Shown: one piece after another, positions 23,580 to 34,159 of the stretch | How the letters are laid out: each line of letters starts with the position of its first letter | How positions within the stretch are numbered: position 1 is the first letter of the stretch | Assembly: GCA_022823235.1 (NCBI GenBank) | Contig: JAJDXO010000059.1 | Coordinates: forward strand, 45,393-109,392 | Length of the DNA: 64,000 bases | From: Rhodospirillales bacterium | GTDB lineage: Bacteria > Pseudomonadota > Alphaproteobacteria > Rhodospirillales > UBA2165 | Reading direction: 5' to 3' | Program-made: the position numbers and the translations under genes | Notes under the pieces: model-generated | Seen by the model: the letters and a program-made list of their open reading frames with translations, nothing else | Database searches by the model: none | Told to the model about the DNA's origin: nothing

Positions 23580-23593
23580 GCGGCCGCCTCGGA

Positions 23594-24055
23594 TCAATCC
23601 TGGCCGGTGAATTCTATGGCGCCGCCGGGCAGCAAATAGAGCACAAGAGCCTCGCCGCCGGAGACCGTCGGCTTATGCGCCGAGTCGGGTTCGTAGACCA
23701 CCCAGCCGGCGCCGCTGCCGTCGAATTCGGCGTCGCCCGACAGCGGCATCACCATGTCCACCTCGCCATTGGGATGCCGGTGGTGCGGGCCGACCACATC
23801 CTTCATCCGAACCACATCGACGGAGAACCCGTCGATATCCTTGATCACCCGGCCGAACTTGATGCCGCCCATCTCCCGGTCGCACATCCACCCCTCGGCC
23901 ACCGCCGCCTCGCAGGCCGCCTGGATGGATTTGAACGTTGCGCCGTCGGCGGGAAACCGGGCGTTGAGTTCATCGGCCAGCGCGCCGGATACCTCCCTGC
24001 CGGAAATCGCGCCGGTGACCTCGCCGATTAGCGACTGAAAGTCTTCGAGTGACAT
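23594..24055 (-). CDS. Small conserved protein, possibly DUF4863 / cupin-like (4-hydroxylaminobenzoate-lyase-like family)
   Basis: 153 aa with the His-rich segment VVGPHHRHPNGEVDMVMP, suggestive of a metal-binding beta-barrel. The family assignment is from memory only. Confidence 0.45.
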   Translation of the reverse strand: MSLEDFQSLIGEVTGAISGREVSGALADELNARFPADGATFKSIQAACEAAVAEGWMCDREMGGIKFGRVIKDIDGFSVDVVRMKDVVGPHHRHPNGEVDMVMPLSGDAEFDGSGAGWVVYEPDSAHKPTVSGGEALVLYLLPGGAIEFTGQD

Positions 24056-27524: not shown

Positions 27525-28499
27525 ATGGAATACATGCCCGACTTCAAGCTCCACCGCCCCGACAACATCGAGGACGCGGTCAAGCTGCGCGCCGAGGAAC
27601 CGGATGCCCTGTTCGTCGCCGGCGGCACCGACATGATCGTCAACGTCCGGCGCGGCATCGAGCAGCCCAAACACCTGATCGATATCACCGCCATCCAGGA
27701 GCTGAAATCCATCCTCCCGGATGGCGACGGCCTGCACATCGGCGCCGGTGTTTCATTGAAGGAACTTCAATCCAACAAGGACGTGCTCCGCGATTACCCG
27801 GCGGTCGCAGAGGCCGCCCGGGCCGTGGCCGGACCGACCCACCAGGAGTACGGCACCGTCGGCGGCAATCTCTGCCTCGACACCAGATGCCTGTTCTATA
27901 ACCAGTCCGAATGGTGGCGGCAGTCCAATGACTACTGCCTCAAGAAGCGGGGCGATACCTGTCATGTGGCGCCGGGCGGGAAGCGCTGCTTCGCGGCGTT
28001 CTCCGGCGACGTTGCGCCCTCGCTTCTGGTCTATGGAGCGGAAATCGATGTGGTGGGCCCCAATGGGCGGCGCCGGATGCCGCTCACCGATCTCTACCGC
28101 AACGACGGCATGGGGCACCTGACCCTCGAGGCTGGTGACATGCTGACCGCGGTCCGCCTGCCGAAGGCGTTGGCCGGATCGCCCTCCAGGTACGAAAAGG
28201 CCCGGGTCCGCGGCTCCATCGATTTTCCGCTGGCCGGCGCCGCCGTCCGGCTGGAGATGGACGGCAAGACGGTGAAGGACTTCGTCGTCGCGCTCACCGC
28301 GGTGAACCCCTACCCCCAGATCGTCAAGCGCACCGATACCTATGTGGGCAGGGAACTCACCGAGGCGGCGCTCGATGAAATCCGCGAGCTGGTCCGCAAG
28401 CAGGCCAAACCCATGCGGACCACCACCGTCGCGCCCTGGTACCGCCGCCGCGTCGTCGGCGCCCTGGCCCGCCGCCTCACGGAGGAATTGGCCGGCTGA
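27525..28499 (+). CDS. FAD-binding medium subunit with extra four-Cys loop (HcrB-like, candidate [4Fe-4S] insertion)
   Basis: 324 aa with the FAD-binding segment FVAGGTDMIV. An insertion with C122-x15-C138-x7-C146-x8-C155 (27873-27989) is not present in ordinary CoxM/XdhB-type subunits as far as I recall. Confidence 0.8.
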   Translation: MEYMPDFKLHRPDNIEDAVKLRAEEPDALFVAGGTDMIVNVRRGIEQPKHLIDITAIQELKSILPDGDGLHIGAGVSLKELQSNKDVLRDYPAVAEAARAVAGPTHQEYGTVGGNLCLDTRCLFYNQSEWWRQSNDYCLKKRGDTCHVAPGGKRCFAAFSGDVAPSLLVYGAEIDVVGPNGRRRMPLTDLYRNDGMGHLTLEAGDMLTAVRLPKALAGSPSRYEKARVRGSIDFPLAGAAVRLEMDGKTVKDFVVALTAVNPYPQIVKRTDTYVGRELTEAALDEIRELVRKQAKPMRTTTVAPWYRRRVVGALARRLTEELAG

Positions 28500-30604
28500 G
28501 GTTCATCTAGCTATTCGGAGTAAATTTGACCAAGTCCTCGAAGCGGGACCAACTGCCAAATACGCGTTCATAGTATTTGGAACTCAATAGGCATAGCCTG
28601 TTTACGTCCTTGCGTGTGGGGACCCTACCTAAGTGACGCTCCAATTTCCGATACTCGTAGATCAGGATTTTGCCGATGTTATGTCTCGTCGCATTCTGCG
28701 GATCTAAGATCTGACTAGAGAATATGTCTAACACCTTGGAGTCGATGTGTACTTTACACCCCGAGGGTAAGTTCAAGAGCTCTTTGGCATTCCCCAACGA
28801 AGCAATGGGAGTTGATTGTGGATCATCTAGTTGTGGTGTTATTCCATGATAATCCAGAATTCGGTAGGCGTTCTTAAAGTTCCCGATAAAATCGATTACC
28901 GTGCAATGGGTCTTGCCGACATGACGCCTCAACCCACGACCCAACTGTTGCATAAAAATCCTCTTTGAATTTGTAGGTCGGAGAAAAAGCAACGCCTCCA
29001 CGAAAGGGAAATCCGTACCTTCATTTAACACATCGACGGCGCAAAGGATGCGTATATCTCCTGTGCGAATTGCGTCTTCAAGTTTGCGACGATCCGCGTA
29101 AGATGTATCTGCTAGGTATGTTGACGCTGGAATCCCATGCTCGTTAAGGTTCGCGGCAAATCGTCTTGCGTGTGTTCGAGAACAGCAAAACGCCAAGGTG
29201 GGCCGGTTTTCGGCGTACTCTCTCCATTTATTGGCAATAGCCGCATCCCTCTCTGGCACTATTAGAGTTTTCTCCAGATCACGTACGGAGTAATTGCCCT
29301 CATGATCATTGAGCGCTGAGTAATCGATATCATCAAAACACCCGTAATAGTGATACGGTGCTAATATTCCGCAATCTACGGCGTAGCGAAGCTCGAAATG
29401 CACGAGTATTCGTCCGTCGCAGAGCTCAGAAATGTCTTGTCGATCCTCACGGAAAGGCGTGGCCGTCATTCCCAACAAGAATTCAGGCGAAAGGCCATTA
29501 ATTGCAGCGCGATATGATTTAGCTGCGGCATGATGAAATTCGTCCACCACGACGTAATCAAATTTTTTGTCTAAGAGCTTTGCTAGCTGGTTCCGAAGCA
29601 GTTGAATAGTAATCAAACTTACTTGCGCCGGTTGAACCAATTCCCGTCCGTCTTGGACCCGCCTAACGTTTTCGCTACCGAATTCAGATGCGAATTCCCT
29701 CTCTGCAACATCCAAAATTTCGTGGGTGTGGGCAACATAGAGAACATGATTGGCCTTTGCGCGCTTCGCATCCTTGGCGGCCACGCGCGTCTTGCCACTT
29801 CCGGTTGGCAACACTACCAAACCGGCCGACTGGCGAAATCGATGCGCGTTTTGTAACTCTTTGAGCGATTCTCGCTGTAGGATGTTGAGTGATTTGTGCT
29901 TGGCGACGAAGCCGCAATCGCACCGTCCTGCAACAAGCTTCGACCCATCTCGAGGACAGACAAATCCATAGGCTATAAGAAGGCGCCCTAGATCAGTCGC
30001 ATCCAAAATACTGTATGCAACTCCTAATCTTTCTGCTGTCGAGACAAACTGCTCCTTCACTGCATCAAGCACATTTCCTACGGTTGCGAACACCGCATAA
30101 TCTAAGCCATCAATCTTCTCCAAACGATAAATCTGGTGCGAAACGTCAGCCGGTCGGACTGTTTTGAAGCTCTTTCCTTTGAGCACAAACGCTGCGAATG
30201 CCGGTCGGCGATTTATGGTGACCTTATGTGTCAGGATATCGACGATTTCCGCCGGGCCGTGTGGAGTTTGATTTGAATCGGCAAGAATCGTTTGGATATA
30301 TGGCTCTAATTCCTCGCGTTCGTCGAGGGCGGCAACCGTGTCTAGAACAGCATCGGAAATATCGCGGCCGGATATTTCACCCGCCGCCTCAAACTCTTTA
30401 ACGTCAACGAATTCAATTAGCCCAGCCAATATTTCAATCTCGCTATCTTGTCACAATTTAAAATAGAGTTTCCGAATTTCCAAATCGCTGATACTGCCTC
30501 GAATAGGTAACCGGAAGTAAGTGCATTGGATCGACGCCAGCTCTTCCGGAGGCCGAGATGAAAAATAAGGGTCGACATTCTGCTGGCCAACGCAATGATA
30601 ACTT
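28500..30604. other. AT-richer single-gene islet (likely horizontally acquired; no mobility gene seen)
   Basis: Base composition drops abruptly 1 nt after the hcrB-like stop and recovers just before the RidA gene. By eye the islet is in the mid-40s % GC and the flanks are in the mid-60s (not computed). Confidence 0.55.
28507..30429 (-). CDS. Multidomain SF2 (DEAH-type, ResIII-like) helicase with restriction-endonuclease-like N-terminal domain, Cys knuckle and C-terminal homing-endonuclease-associated (HNH_repeat-like) module
   Basis: 640 aa. Helicase motifs are I LPTGSGKT, II VVVDEFHH, III MTATP and VI QQLGRGLRR. The N-terminal 55-160 follows an Mrr-like pattern (EIVDILT...AAFVLKGKS...VFATVG...ILDATDLGRLLIAYG). 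The Cys knuckle is CPRDGSKLVAGRCDCG. The C-terminus LGRVPTRKDV...YYERVFGSWSRFEDLV matches the GRxPT...FGSW repeat. TTG start in the track. Confidence 0.8.
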   Translation of the reverse strand: MAGLIEFVDVKEFEAAGEISGRDISDAVLDTVAALDEREELEPYIQTILADSNQTPHGPAEIVDILTHKVTINRRPAFAAFVLKGKSFKTVRPADVSHQIYRLEKIDGLDYAVFATVGNVLDAVKEQFVSTAERLGVAYSILDATDLGRLLIAYGFVCPRDGSKLVAGRCDCGFVAKHKSLNILQRESLKELQNAHRFRQSAGLVVLPTGSGKTRVAAKDAKRAKANHVLYVAHTHEILDVAEREFASEFGSENVRRVQDGRELVQPAQVSLITIQLLRNQLAKLLDKKFDYVVVDEFHHAAAKSYRAAINGLSPEFLLGMTATPFREDRQDISELCDGRILVHFELRYAVDCGILAPYHYYGCFDDIDYSALNDHEGNYSVRDLEKTLIVPERDAAIANKWREYAENRPTLAFCCSRTHARRFAANLNEHGIPASTYLADTSYADRRKLEDAIRTGDIRILCAVDVLNEGTDFPFVEALLFLRPTNSKRIFMQQLGRGLRRHVGKTHCTVIDFIGNFKNAYRILDYHGITPQLDDPQSTPIASLGNAKELLNLPSGCKVHIDSKVLDIFSSQILDPQNATRHNIGKILIYEYRKLERHLGRVPTRKDVNRLCLLSSKYYERVFGSWSRFEDLVKFTPNS

Positions 30605-31045
30605 TTGGCCGATGCAGCAGAGTGCCTGATGAGCGATTTCGAACAATTGTTGCCCGACGGCTGGAAGCAGCCGGTCGGCTACGCCAACGGCATCACCGGA
30701 CCGGTGAACGGCCGGCCGGTGTTCATCGCCGGTATGGTCGGCTGGACGGCGGAGGAGAAGTTCGAAACCCGCGACATGGCCGAACAGTTCGGCCGGACGG
30801 TCAGGAATATCTTGGCGGTGCTGGCGGAAGCCGGGGGCAAGCCCGAGCATATCTGCCGGATGACCGCCTACTGCACGGACAAGCCCGCCTACCTGGCCGC
30901 GCGCAAGGCGCTGGGTCCCATTTGGCGGGACCTCATGGGCGATCACTACCCGGCGATGGCACTGGTATTCGTCGACGCCCTGTTGGAAGATGAGGCTCTG
31001 ATCGAGATTGAAGCGACGGCGGTGATCCCCGCCGGAGGAGAGTAG
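30605..31045 (+). CDS. RidA/YjgF/L-PSP family protein
   Basis: 146 aa with [19 protein letters not shown] and the C-terminal LIEIEATAV pattern. The start may be ATG 30629. Confidence 0.75.
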
Positions 31046-31047
31046 CC

Positions 31048-32244
<1,197 letters not shown>

Positions 32245-32455
32245 CCTGAACCCGCTCGGGCCTTGGTCAAAACCCTCGCCGTCGTCACCTGCCCTGCCTG
32301 CGGCCATAGGGAACTTCCGCAGCGCGCGGAGGATTCTGGACATCGATCCGGATCGCGGCTAGCCTTCCTGCGGTAGGAGTCCTGACGGGCGCGGTCGACC
32401 GGAATAGCGCGCCGAGGTGTCGTTTGACTGTAACAGGGAAACGATGGGGGATGGG

Positions 32456-33832
32456 ATGGACCGGTTAAACGCAATCATCAGCGAGATTAACGCGTTCGCA
32501 TGGGGCCCGCCCATGCTCGGCATTCTGGGGGTGACGGGCGTGCTGCTCACCCTCGGCCTCATGTTCATGCCGTGGCGCAAGGTGGGGTACGGGTTCCGTC
32601 TGCTGTTCGACAAGGACGGCGCGACGGGCGAGGGCGAGGTCAAGCCCTTCAACGCGCTGATGACGGCGCTGTCCGCCACGGTGGGCACCGGAAACATCGC
32701 CGGCGTCGCTACCGCGATCGCGCTTGGCGGCCCGGGCGCCATCTTCTACATGTGGCTGATCGCGCTGTTCGGCATGGCCACGAAATACGCCGAGGCGGTG
32801 TGCGCGGTCACCTATCGCGAGGTCGACGCGAACGGCAAGTATGTCGGCGGGCCGATGTACTATCTGCGCAACGGCGTCGGCGAGTTCGCGCCCGAACTCG
32901 GCAAGTGGCTGGGGCTGGCGTTCGCGATTTTCGGCGCCGTGGCGGCCTTCGGCATCGGCAACGCAGTCCAGGTCAACTCGATGGCCGCTGCGCTCGACAA
33001 CAGCTTCGGCATTCCGGAATGGTCCACCGGGGTGGTCGTCGCGGCGCTGGTCGGCGTCGTCGTGATCGGCGGCATCCGGCGCATCGGCGATGTGGCCGGA
33101 AAGCTGGTGCCGGCGATGATCGTGCTCTATCTCGGCGCAGCGCTGGTGATCCTCGCGATCAACGTGACGGCGATCCCTGGCGCGATCGGGCTGATCTTCA
33201 CCCACGCCTTCACGCCGGCAGCGGCGACCGGCGGCTTTGCCGGGGCGGCGGTGGCGGCGGCGATCCGCTTCGGCATCGCGCGCGGCGTGTTCTCAAACGA
33301 ATCGGGGCTTGGCTCGGCCGCCATCGCGCATGCCGCGGCGCAGACCAACAGCCCGGTACGGCAGGGCATCATCGCCATGCTGGGCACCTTCATAGACACC
33401 ATCGTGGTGTGCACGATGACCGCACTGGTGATCCTGACCTCGGGCGCCTGGGTCATGACCGGCTCGGACGGCGGCGGGCTGACCGGGGCGGTGCTGACCT
33501 CGACCGGCTTCGAGACCTCGATGGCGGGCGGGCAGTACATCGTCACCGTCGCGCTGGCGGTGTTCGCCTTCACCACCATCCTCGGCTGGTCCTATTACGG
33601 CGAGCGGTGTTGGCAGTACCTGTTCAAGGAACGGAGCCTGGTGATCTATCGCGCGCTGTGGGTGCTGGCGGCTCTCGCTTTCGCGAACGTGAAGGTGGAC
33701 TTGGTGTGGAACCTCGCCGACACGCTCAACGGGCTGATGGCGGTGCCCAACCTGATCGGCCTGCTGTTGCTCGCGCCGATGGTGTTCAAGGTCACGCGCG
33801 AGTATTTCGAGGATTTGGGCAAACCGCTCTGA
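32456..33832 (+). CDS. Alanine/glycine:cation symporter (AGCS family)
   Basis: Polytopic protein with FNALMTALSATVGTGNIAGVATAI and ARGVFSNESGLGSAAIAHAAA. The start is uncertain (32417, 32444 or 32456). Confidence 0.85.
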   Translation: MDRLNAIISEINAFAWGPPMLGILGVTGVLLTLGLMFMPWRKVGYGFRLLFDKDGATGEGEVKPFNALMTALSATVGTGNIAGVATAIALGGPGAIFYMWLIALFGMATKYAEAVCAVTYREVDANGKYVGGPMYYLRNGVGEFAPELGKWLGLAFAIFGAVAAFGIGNAVQVNSMAAALDNSFGIPEWSTGVVVAALVGVVVIGGIRRIGDVAGKLVPAMIVLYLGAALVILAINVTAIPGAIGLIFTHAFTPAAATGGFAGAAVAAAIRFGIARGVFSNESGLGSAAIAHAAAQTNSPVRQGIIAMLGTFIDTIVVCTMTALVILTSGAWVMTGSDGGGLTGAVLTSTGFETSMAGGQYIVTVALAVFAFTTILGWSYYGERCWQYLFKERSLVIYRALWVLAALAFANVKVDLVWNLADTLNGLMAVPNLIGLLLLAPMVFKVTREYFEDLGKPL

Positions 33833-34113
33833 TGACGGCGCGGCACTGCGGTCGCAGGTCTTCTGGAACTCCTCCACCGCCTTAATGCCGTCGGCCTGTG
33901 AGGGTTCACCACCCTCCTTCGGCCTTCCAGCGTCAGCGGGTGGCAGGCGTCCATCCCATTTTTCCGGTCCTGGACCTGCCGGTCGTGCAGCGAAACCACT
34001 TATGTGGACGACGGCGAATGCTGCATCTTTTGCGTTCACGGGAACCACCGGATTTATTCCGTTCGCCGACCTCCTTGGGCGGGACCTCATTGCCCGCCGT
34101 ATCCGATCGGCCG

Positions 34114-34159
34114 AGAGCAGTATCCGGCCAAATGGTTCAATCTGGCCGGATACTGCTCT
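34114..34159. repeat. Perfect 17-bp inverted repeat AGAGCAGTATCCGGCCA-N12-TGGCCGGATACTGCTCT
   Basis: Read directly from the sequence. It lies 40 nt upstream of the DMT transporter start and about 280 nt downstream of the AGCS stop. No U-tract follows on either strand. Confidence 0.6.

Follow-up and report, generated by a model that had tools for sequence, protein, structure and literature searches.

A solitary nuclease–motor gene inserted beside ridA in a Rhodospirillales bacterium is a candidate single-gene defence system

Enzymes that join a nuclease and an ATP-driven motor in a single chain are already known. SauUSI has been shown experimentally to be an ATP-dependent double-stranded DNA translocase–nuclease, and it consists of a PLD nuclease (residues 1–191), an ATPase (221–617), a coupler (618–805), whose first subdomain (618–669) is built from short helices, four in all, and an SRA reader (806–953) (PMC7913695). 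In the N-terminal half of type ISP enzymes, an Mrr-family (PD-(D/E)xK) nuclease is followed by a superfamily 2 (SF2) motor and a coupler (PMC4666363). Hna, an 845-aa 3′–5′ single-stranded DNA (ssDNA) exonuclease, has an N-terminal DinG-like SF2 helicase and a C-terminal PD-(D/E)XK nuclease (PMC13381803), and MtsD of the MANTIS system is a SauUSI-like ATPase–nuclease that lacks a target-recognition domain and keeps the PLD nuclease (bioRxiv 10.64898/2026.09.23.753747). Here we analyse a gene for a 640-aa protein, composed in order of a nuclease-like domain (the N-domain), a Cys knuckle, an SF2 ATPase and a C-terminal helical module, which lies in a low-GC islet of a 64,000-nucleotide stretch (the window, to which all positions refer unless a locus is named) of the Rhodospirillales bacterium contig JAJDXO010000059.1. 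On balance we consider it somewhat more likely than not that this horizontally acquired gene encodes an autonomous, ATP-dependent nuclease–translocase, most likely acting on invading phage or plasmid DNA; the case for a defence role is circumstantial and draws on sequence, fold and context. The protein fits the theme common to SauUSI, type ISP enzymes, HsdR, RadD and Hna, and is a member of none of these. What is new is its nuclease-fold domain, which had not been described before.

The islet gene is inserted, foreign DNA that was acquired horizontally. We used the adjoining hcrB-like gene to query 185,579 species-representative genomes; the 80 best-matching loci, which we retained, come mostly from metagenome-assembled genomes of Rhodospirillales. 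In the closest three (L010, L011 and L012, the last being chromosome OZ243926.1), the flanks are colinear with those of the window and about 95% identical in DNA, the stop codon of the hcrB-like gene is followed by a spacer of 25–30 nt and then by ridA, and the insert has no match. We read the islet as an insertion because relatives with such similar flanks have empty sites, and alignment of the junctions showed that it stands in place of the spacer CGACACGTTCTATGCTCGCGTGCAA (about 25 nt). None of the best 80 related loci carries the helicase gene between hcrB and ridA, and the identical insertion is also present in L001, an assembly from an independent read set. The composition is equally distinct. 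The insert, 2,111 bp long, has a GC content of 0.48 compared with 0.63–0.66 for the host genome; the GC profile falls from 0.63–0.67 in the flanks to 0.46–0.52 across the tract, the only one below 0.56 in the whole window; and GC at third codon positions (GC3) is 0.495 in the islet gene versus 0.84–0.90 in six neighbouring genes. An initial annotation made from the sequence alone had proposed an AT-richer islet at 28500–30604, holding one 640-aa minus-strand gene and inserted into an aromatic catabolic cluster. Open reading frame (ORF) analysis, GC and GC3 confirmed the islet and its gene, the synteny comparison bore out the insertion, with sites empty in relatives and composition foreign, and the limits were revised by the empty-site comparison to 28501 and about 30611. 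At the insert ends we found no target-site duplication or terminal inverted repeat, just repeats of 10–20 nt at chance level. As the initial annotation had also stated, no methyltransferase or integrase was present among the ten flanking ORFs in a Pfam scan and no tRNA was found between 15 and 45 kb of the window; nor was there an hsdM or hsdS gene within about 8 kb of the islet gene in the window.

The gene belongs to a family with a patchy distribution across several bacterial phyla and archaea. Among the best 120 matches from a search of 5.8 billion proteins, all are full-length (619–665 aa, 55–63% identity, nearly all covering at least 95% of the query), and members named by their source are labelled just ‘DEAD/DEAH box helicase’. 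Among the hosts with names are Aenigmarchaeota, Terracidiphilus, Kiritimatiellae, Longimicrobium, Terriglobia and Thermodesulfovibrionales, and a scan of JGI metagenomes contributed 80 further loci, the majority of them sampled from soil, peat, sediment and lakes. Across 44 loci the family gene has a GC content of 0.36–0.56 (mean 0.49) in flanks of 0.39–0.72, and in 30 of them it lies more than 0.03 below its flanks. A single-gene low-GC islet is the usual habit of the family, because, across nine high-GC hosts that are unrelated, the tract of low GC coincides with the gene give or take 0–300 nt. In the hosts with the lowest GC, the gene instead lies above its flanks, so that family GC is drawn toward about 0.49 (44 loci, L002–L168); this steadiness would mean either that all transfers were recent or that the composition of the gene is under some constraint. 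When 392 ORFs located up to 6 kb from the gene at 81 loci were clustered, the largest neighbour family occurred in four loci and no conserved neighbour emerged, in agreement with the stand-alone gene of the initial annotation. One homologue, P0004, sits between an Iet-like AAA+S8 pair and an SMEK_N protein, and this neighbourhood (L002/L003, 3866–7676 and 10059–10769) looks like a defence island; its S8 peptidase matches the PADLOC model IetS (E 2e-277), and an FRG-domain protein is encoded upstream. Other homologues are placed among metabolic genes, and the host insertion sites all differ. This last observation bears on a possible selfish origin, in which the gene would spread like a free-standing homing-endonuclease gene by cutting naive loci, any benefit to the host being incidental. 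Such an origin would suit the clean replacement of an intergenic spacer without integrase, target-site duplication or inverted repeats, the single-gene mobile unit, and a C-terminal module matching a repeat whose name reflects an association with homing endonucleases. However, a different site in every host argues against site-specific homing, a large ATP motor is atypical of homing enzymes, and homologous recombination of the flanks accounts for the junctions equally well. We therefore regard a selfish gene as extremely unlikely.

The motor can be identified from sequence. The TTG start codon of the gene is supported because homologues start at the same position, and every motif quoted in the initial annotation (EIVDILT, AAFVLKGKS, CPRDGSKLVAGRCDCG, LPTGSGKT with K213, DEFH, TATP, QQLGRGLRR and LGRVPTRKDV...FGSWSRFEDLV) is present. 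The complete SF2 helicase that it had recognised was recovered by Pfam (ResIII, residues 181–327, E 3.6e-30; Helicase_C, 405–502) and by alignment with SauUSI, and the ATPase motifs (Walker A LPTGSGK213T, D296-E-F-H, TATP and QQLGRGLR among them) are all invariant in 38 homologues. SauUSI (7clg_A) is the closest solved relative, with residues 182–611 of the islet protein aligned to its residues 224–645 (E 4.5e-54), followed by RadD (3e-23), a type I R subunit (PDB 3h1t, 5.5e-20) and archaeal XPB. Consistent with this, the best PADLOC model was the SauUSI-type mREase_IV (‘type IV methyl-directed restriction enzyme’; E 6.5e-56, model positions 224–643 of 953), and a Foldseek search with the full-length AlphaFold2 (AF2) model, which is of moderate quality (predicted local distance difference test score (pLDDT) 71, predicted template-modelling score (pTM) 0.46), ranked SauUSI first and RadD second, with HsdR and LlaBIII further down. 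Like SauUSI, the islet protein is one polypeptide that runs from a nuclease or nuclease-like domain through an SF2 DExH motor to a helical coupler or coupler-like module, encoded by a solitary gene without a methyltransferase. The two differ in their nucleases, SauUSI having a PLD-type enzyme with the HxK(x)4E motif and the islet protein a restriction-endonuclease fold and a Cys knuckle; the islet protein has no Pfam PLD match, and the alignments to both 7clg and mREase_IV begin at residue 182. They also differ in length (953 versus 640 aa, a difference of 313 aa), and the second coupler subdomain and the SRA/DUF3427 reader of 5-methylcytosine (5mC) and 5-hydroxymethylcytosine are absent from the islet protein. 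The homing-endonuclease-associated repeat that the initial annotation had read at the C terminus scored above the Pfam gathering cutoff (HNH_repeat, PF18780, residues 589–630, window 28540–28665; 31.5 bits, or 34.1 on the isolated C terminus, with a cutoff of 26), and this stretch corresponds to the beginning of the coupler in the SauUSI alignment. That alignment reaches residue 645 of the subdomain at 618–669, and the islet protein ends about 30 residues later.

These comparisons raise the alternative that the protein is a type IV modification-dependent enzyme, in which recognition of a modified base by the N-domain or by the C-terminal module licenses translocation and cleavage, host DNA being unmarked. 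SauUSI as the closest characterised relative of the motor and a type IV enzyme as the best PADLOC model both speak for it, as do the solitary gene without a methyltransferase partner, a hallmark of type IV enzymes, and the fact that two modification-dependent enzymes, MspJI and AspBHI, have nuclease domains that appear among the fold matches of the N-domain. However, the part of SauUSI that confers modification dependence (DUF3427/SRA, 806–953) is missing together with most of the coupler, because the alignment ends at SauUSI residue 645; a search of the protein revealed neither an SRA, PUA or EVE domain nor any other known reader of modified bases; and the matched part of MspJI and AspBHI is the catalytic domain, not the reader. 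A type IV mode of action thus appears unlikely to us. The chain also has no methyltransferase of its own, the sole match being to Methyltransf_25 (E 0.017) with zero domains past the threshold.

Restriction enzymes of two other types share the general layout. Type ISP enzymes (LlaGI and LlaBIII) have the same order in their N-terminal half (PMC4666363), and Foldseek aligned 725 columns of the islet protein to LlaBIII (4xqk). By contrast, their methyltransferase and DNA-recognition domains are absent from the islet protein, the resemblance in sequence is slight (LlaGI, E 0.0095 over 55 residues), and the N-domain has no Pfam Mrr_cat match. HsdR proteins (EcoR124I and the EcoAI family) likewise begin with a PD-(D/E)xK nuclease, continue with an SF2 translocase and end in a helical domain, and they match the islet protein at the level of the motor. 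The islet protein might be the cleavage or motor subunit of a multi-component system, inert alone and with partners encoded elsewhere, as for HsdR or MtsD. The HsdR-like domain order agrees with this, as do Foldseek alignments of 750–790 columns to EcoR124I HsdR in addition to those with LlaBIII, the matches to the NCBIfam EcoAI R subunit (E 7.9e-23) and to 3h1t, and the precedent of MtsD, a SauUSI-like module proposed to rely on partner proteins (bioRxiv 10.64898/2026.09.23.753747). However, the NCBIfam score for restrict_EcoAI was 80.7 bits against a cutoff of 550, and that for PRK11448 was 33 against 729. No neighbour recurs in the 81 loci and none is an hsdM or hsdS gene, the 148 non-redundant neighbours including one or two unrelated type II methyltransferases. 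Because the foreign tract is one gene in nine hosts, any partner would need to be present already in phyla that differ widely. The islet gene differs from MtsD in having another nuclease and no operon partners. We consider the subunit explanation very doubtful, and an autonomous enzyme remains the reading that we prefer.

In contrast to the motor, the N-domain matched no known family or solved structure by sequence. Residues 1–180 have no Pfam match, the isolated domain has none even at E values up to 10, a profile of 26 sequences retrieved nothing from the complete set of PDB sequences at the same E limit, and neither NCBIfam nor PHROGs contains a match to it (with the full protein, PHROGs matched the helicase core and, weakly, the C-terminal module). 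An AF2 model built from an alignment of 26 homologues (pLDDT 89.4) predicts a helix, a hairpin of two long strands, and then helix, strand, helix, strand and helix; its elements (helix 37–50, strands 65–72 and 75–84, helix 93–105 and strand 111–116) correspond to an alpha-beta-beta-beta-alpha-beta core. The best Foldseek matches among solved structures were EcoT38I, MspJI, AspBHI, the N-terminal region of Avs4 (8dgf), VC1899 and the Rpb5 N-domain, and a viral fold library returned Rpb5 and phage proteins annotated as ‘restriction endonuclease’ or as containing an Mrr domain. Assignment of the modelled domain to the restriction-endonuclease fold is reasonable because these matches, though weak, agree with each other, and it upholds the restriction-endonuclease-like reading of the initial annotation. 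Among 100 instances of the domain drawn from all architectures, E61, D64 and K84 are conserved in 100% and H57, T55, D122 and E37 in 97–99%; the invariant residues listed for the core are E37, E42, T55, H57, E61, D64, K84, Q99 and D122, and about 40 positions of the domain are invariant in 38 aligned family members. Judged from the alignment, this conservation has the pattern of a putative active site. D64 lies at the start of strand 2 and K84 on strand 3, and position 82 is isoleucine or valine, in keeping with the remark in the initial annotation that the middle acidic residue of a PD-(D/E)xK triad is not obvious. Our best guess is that the invariant E61 replaces this acid; alternatively, D122 or E42 may supply it. 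In the adjoining knuckle, C158, C170 and C172 are invariant in 38 homologues, giving three putative Cys ligands.

Of 1.84 billion cluster representatives searched by profile, only 310 proteins contain the N-domain, and they include several with other architectures. In one, of about 451 aa (P0129 and relatives, L172–L174), the domain comes first and is followed by a C-terminal domain of 270 aa without known identity. Members of this sister family are solitary, lie near transposases and insertion sequence elements, reverse transcriptase, AbiEi and serine recombinase genes, and occur in Gammaproteobacteria, Planctomycetes and Thermoplasmatales; those named by their source are all ‘hypothetical protein’. 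It is probably another uncharacterised one-gene system. In a second architecture, of about 460 aa (P0221), the domain is at the C terminus, and neither the 451-aa relatives nor those with a C-terminal domain have a PHROGs match. The genomic context of P0129 and P0221 was uninformative, their contigs being 1.7–2.6 kb long. In P0128 (1,252 aa) and P0194 (1,549 aa), the domain precedes an array of TPR repeats, and P0128 also has a Walker-A NTPase (GKAGAGKST); the layout of both is that of Avs-like STAND–TPR proteins, and neither matches any PADLOC Avs model. In P0133 (656 aa), an LmuA/Cap4-like nuclease is placed ahead of the domain. The Cys knuckle is kept where the domain precedes another module (P0128 and P0129) and absent where the domain is C-terminal (P0221). 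The N-terminal position in Avs proteins is that of the effector domain. A link to Avs4-type STAND proteins thus appears twice, in the fold match of the N-domain to Avs4 and in P0128 and P0194, which the domain heads; the difference is that a STAND NTPase and TPR sensor follow the domain there and an SF2 motor follows it in the islet protein. Support for a role in defence comes from this effector position, from the fusion to an LmuA/Cap4-like nuclease in P0133 and from the known defence genes found next to some homologues.

Use of the domain as an effector would also suit a sensor–effector that acts by abortive infection like Hna or Nhi, auto-inhibited until it meets a phage product or replication intermediate (single-stranded-DNA-binding protein, ssDNA or free ends) and then degrading DNA indiscriminately. 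This mode of activation is known for single-polypeptide nuclease–helicase proteins of defence, Hna being an example (PMC13381803), and the islet protein, which like Hna is a single gene product joining an SF2 helicase to a domain of PD-(D/E)XK type, has no domain for recognising DNA sequence or modification. However, the domain order is the reverse of that in Hna, a difference that the initial annotation had pointed out and the published description confirms (PMC13381803); the motor belongs to the SauUSI/RadD/XPB/HsdR branch and is not DinG-like, as in Hna, or SF1, as in Nhi; and no PADLOC model for Hna or Nhi was matched. We judge this mode of action, too, to be improbable. The sharing of the N-domain with Avs-like proteins also argues against an accessory helicase–nuclease of DNA repair or recombination, comparable to RadD, XPB–Bax1 or Hef, that would have no part in immunity. 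RadD and archaeal XPB are indeed the second-best relatives of the motor, with an NCBIfam E value of 1.3e-34 for RadD, and both the high sequence conservation, like that of housekeeping enzymes, and the many housekeeping genes among the neighbours would be expected of a repair enzyme. Yet the RadD score was 119.5 bits against a cutoff of 720, the gene is missing from the site in the relatives with about 95% identical flanks and in all of the best 80 related loci, its composition is foreign in most hosts, and its distribution is patchy across the domains of life. A repair function is therefore very unlikely in our view. The initial annotation had been unable to place the protein in a named system; with RadD and EcoAI scores below their cutoffs, neither a repair helicase nor the Res subunit of a restriction–modification system was assigned, and comparison with SauUSI, type ISP enzymes, HsdR, RadD and Hna likewise yielded no named system that fits.

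Several findings weigh against a nuclease–translocase that acts alone in defence. The N-domain has fold matches of low score (E 1e-3 to 3e-2, TM 0.35–0.41), and its nuclease activity is not assured because the canonical middle acidic residue of PD-(D/E)xK enzymes is missing from strand 3. Mean column identity in 38 aligned members is 67%, unusually high for an immune gene. By tblastn at a query coverage of at least 80%, none of 72,556 plasmids and none of 50,697 phage genomes carried a family member, the matches being to the helicase core alone at no more than 37% identity, with several of the best plasmid ones annotated as DUF3427; a scan of IMG/VR likewise found no relatives. Among the 148 non-redundant neighbours, no more than roughly one in ten is recognised by a defence model (IetS, PD-Lambda-1, a CBASS cyclase, type II methyltransferases, GajA/PtuA-like ATPases, MADS proteins and PDC-M45B), and most are housekeeping or metabolic, so that enrichment in defence islands is weak. 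Finally, MtsD, the described SauUSI-like protein without a target-recognition domain, is encoded in an operon and proposed to act downstream of MtsABC (bioRxiv 10.64898/2026.09.23.753747).

If the islet protein is an autonomous defence enzyme, the following sequence of events can be proposed. By analogy with SauUSI, its SF2 motor would bind DNA and translocate using ATP. The modelled N-domain would cut the DNA, with a likely active site of E61, D64 and K84 helped by E37/E42, H57, Q99 or D122, and the Cys knuckle, judging from fold and conservation, would tie this domain to the motor. The C-terminal four-helix module may take the role of the first SauUSI coupler subdomain, contacting DNA or signalling to the motor. 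Because there is no methyltransferase, separate target-recognition domain or conserved partner, discrimination of self from non-self would have to reside within the polypeptide or depend on a phage-derived trigger. A broader proposal, which we offer tentatively and with clearly less confidence, is that the family is an unrecognised single-gene immune system of Bacteria and Archaea, that the N-domain is a new PD-(D/E)xK-type effector family shared with Avs-like STAND NTPases and the 451-aa family, and that self and foreign DNA are told apart without a methyltransferase, a modified-base reader or a partner. One route to such discrimination could be translocation of the SauUSI type coupled to a structural or phage-protein trigger.

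Table 1. Positions of the insert, the parts of its gene and the adjoining genes in the window
Feature	Positions	Strand	Details or evidence
Horizontally acquired single-gene insert	28501..30611		Empty sites in L010, L011 and L012; GC; GC3
Upstream region, presumed promoter and 5′ untranslated region	30430..30611	-	182 nt, GC 0.445; AT-rich, arrived with the gene
Coding sequence, 640 aa	28507..30429	-	TTG start 30427–30429, TAG stop 28507–28509
Restriction-endonuclease-fold (PD-(D/E)xK-like) domain, residues 1–157	29959..30429	-	AF2 model, Foldseek, conservation
Cys knuckle, residues 158–173, C158-P-x-D...G-R-C170-x-C172-G	29911..29958	-	Invariant columns
SF2 DExH ATPase/translocase core, residues 181–522	28864..29889	-	Pfam, PDB, PADLOC, Foldseek
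Linker (NLPxGC...) and four-helix module, residues 523–640	28510..28863	-	Pfam HNH_repeat, SauUSI alignment
Left flank: FAD-binding medium subunit, xanthine-dehydrogenase family (4-hydroxybenzoyl-CoA-reductase-like)	27525..28499	+	PF00941 and PF03450 on the identical L001 gene
Right flank: RidA family (Ribonuc_L-PSP)	30629..31045	+	Start ATG aligned with the start in relatives
gcdH-like acyl-CoA dehydrogenase	31048..32244		Follows ridA

The insert separates two groups of metabolic genes (Table 1). On one side are genes for a CoA ligase, CoA transferase subunits, PnbB and a three-subunit enzyme of the xanthine-dehydrogenase family, which includes the hcrB-like gene (94–95% identical in L010–L012), whose stop codon abuts the insert. 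The other side encodes RidA, the acyl-CoA dehydrogenase, a Na:Ala symporter and an EamA transporter. The start of ridA is most likely its ATG rather than the TTG at 30605 of the mechanically called ORF, which falls partly within insert DNA. A promoter and terminator scan gave nothing above shuffled expectation, and the promoter of the islet gene is presumed only, because no sigma-70 consensus was seen on the minus strand. On the plus strand, a sigma-70-like pair (TCGACA, 16 nt, AATGAT) at 30572–30599 lies within the right end of the insert and faces ridA; in a scan that was at chance level overall, this hexamer pair could drive ridA–gcdH, which the insertion separates from upstream transcription. 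A homologue of PnbB (4-hydroxylaminobenzoate lyase; 23594–24055, minus strand, E 4e-48) adjoins the genes for the CoA ligase, CoA transferase and xanthine-dehydrogenase-family enzyme, and the substrates of the catabolic cluster may extend beyond 4-hydroxybenzoyl-CoA to compounds of the nitro- or aminobenzoate type. The surroundings vary in other ways: L012 (10695–10958) lacks about 1.85 kb present at about 32309–34158 of the window, a second difference in gene content near the insert, which includes the Na:Ala symporter gene (32417–33832) and has the normal host GC of 0.66, and L012 carries about 0.5 kb extra near window position 23589.

For this bacterium, the islet gene is recent foreign cargo and no part of the aromatic-acid catabolic cluster that it interrupts. 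The family to which it belongs occurs widely in metagenomes from soil, peat, sediment and marine sites and is absent from the plasmid and phage collections of cultured organisms that we searched, which may be the reason why no paper describing it turned up. Its motor poses a mechanistic question, namely how an enzyme of the SauUSI type chooses its target without a 5mC-reading domain. If the defence role is true, a compact 640-aa, one-gene nuclease–motor system would be added to the catalogue, and a function would be provided for a domain of restriction-endonuclease fold that has no annotation and is shared by four or more architectures, the Avs-like one included.

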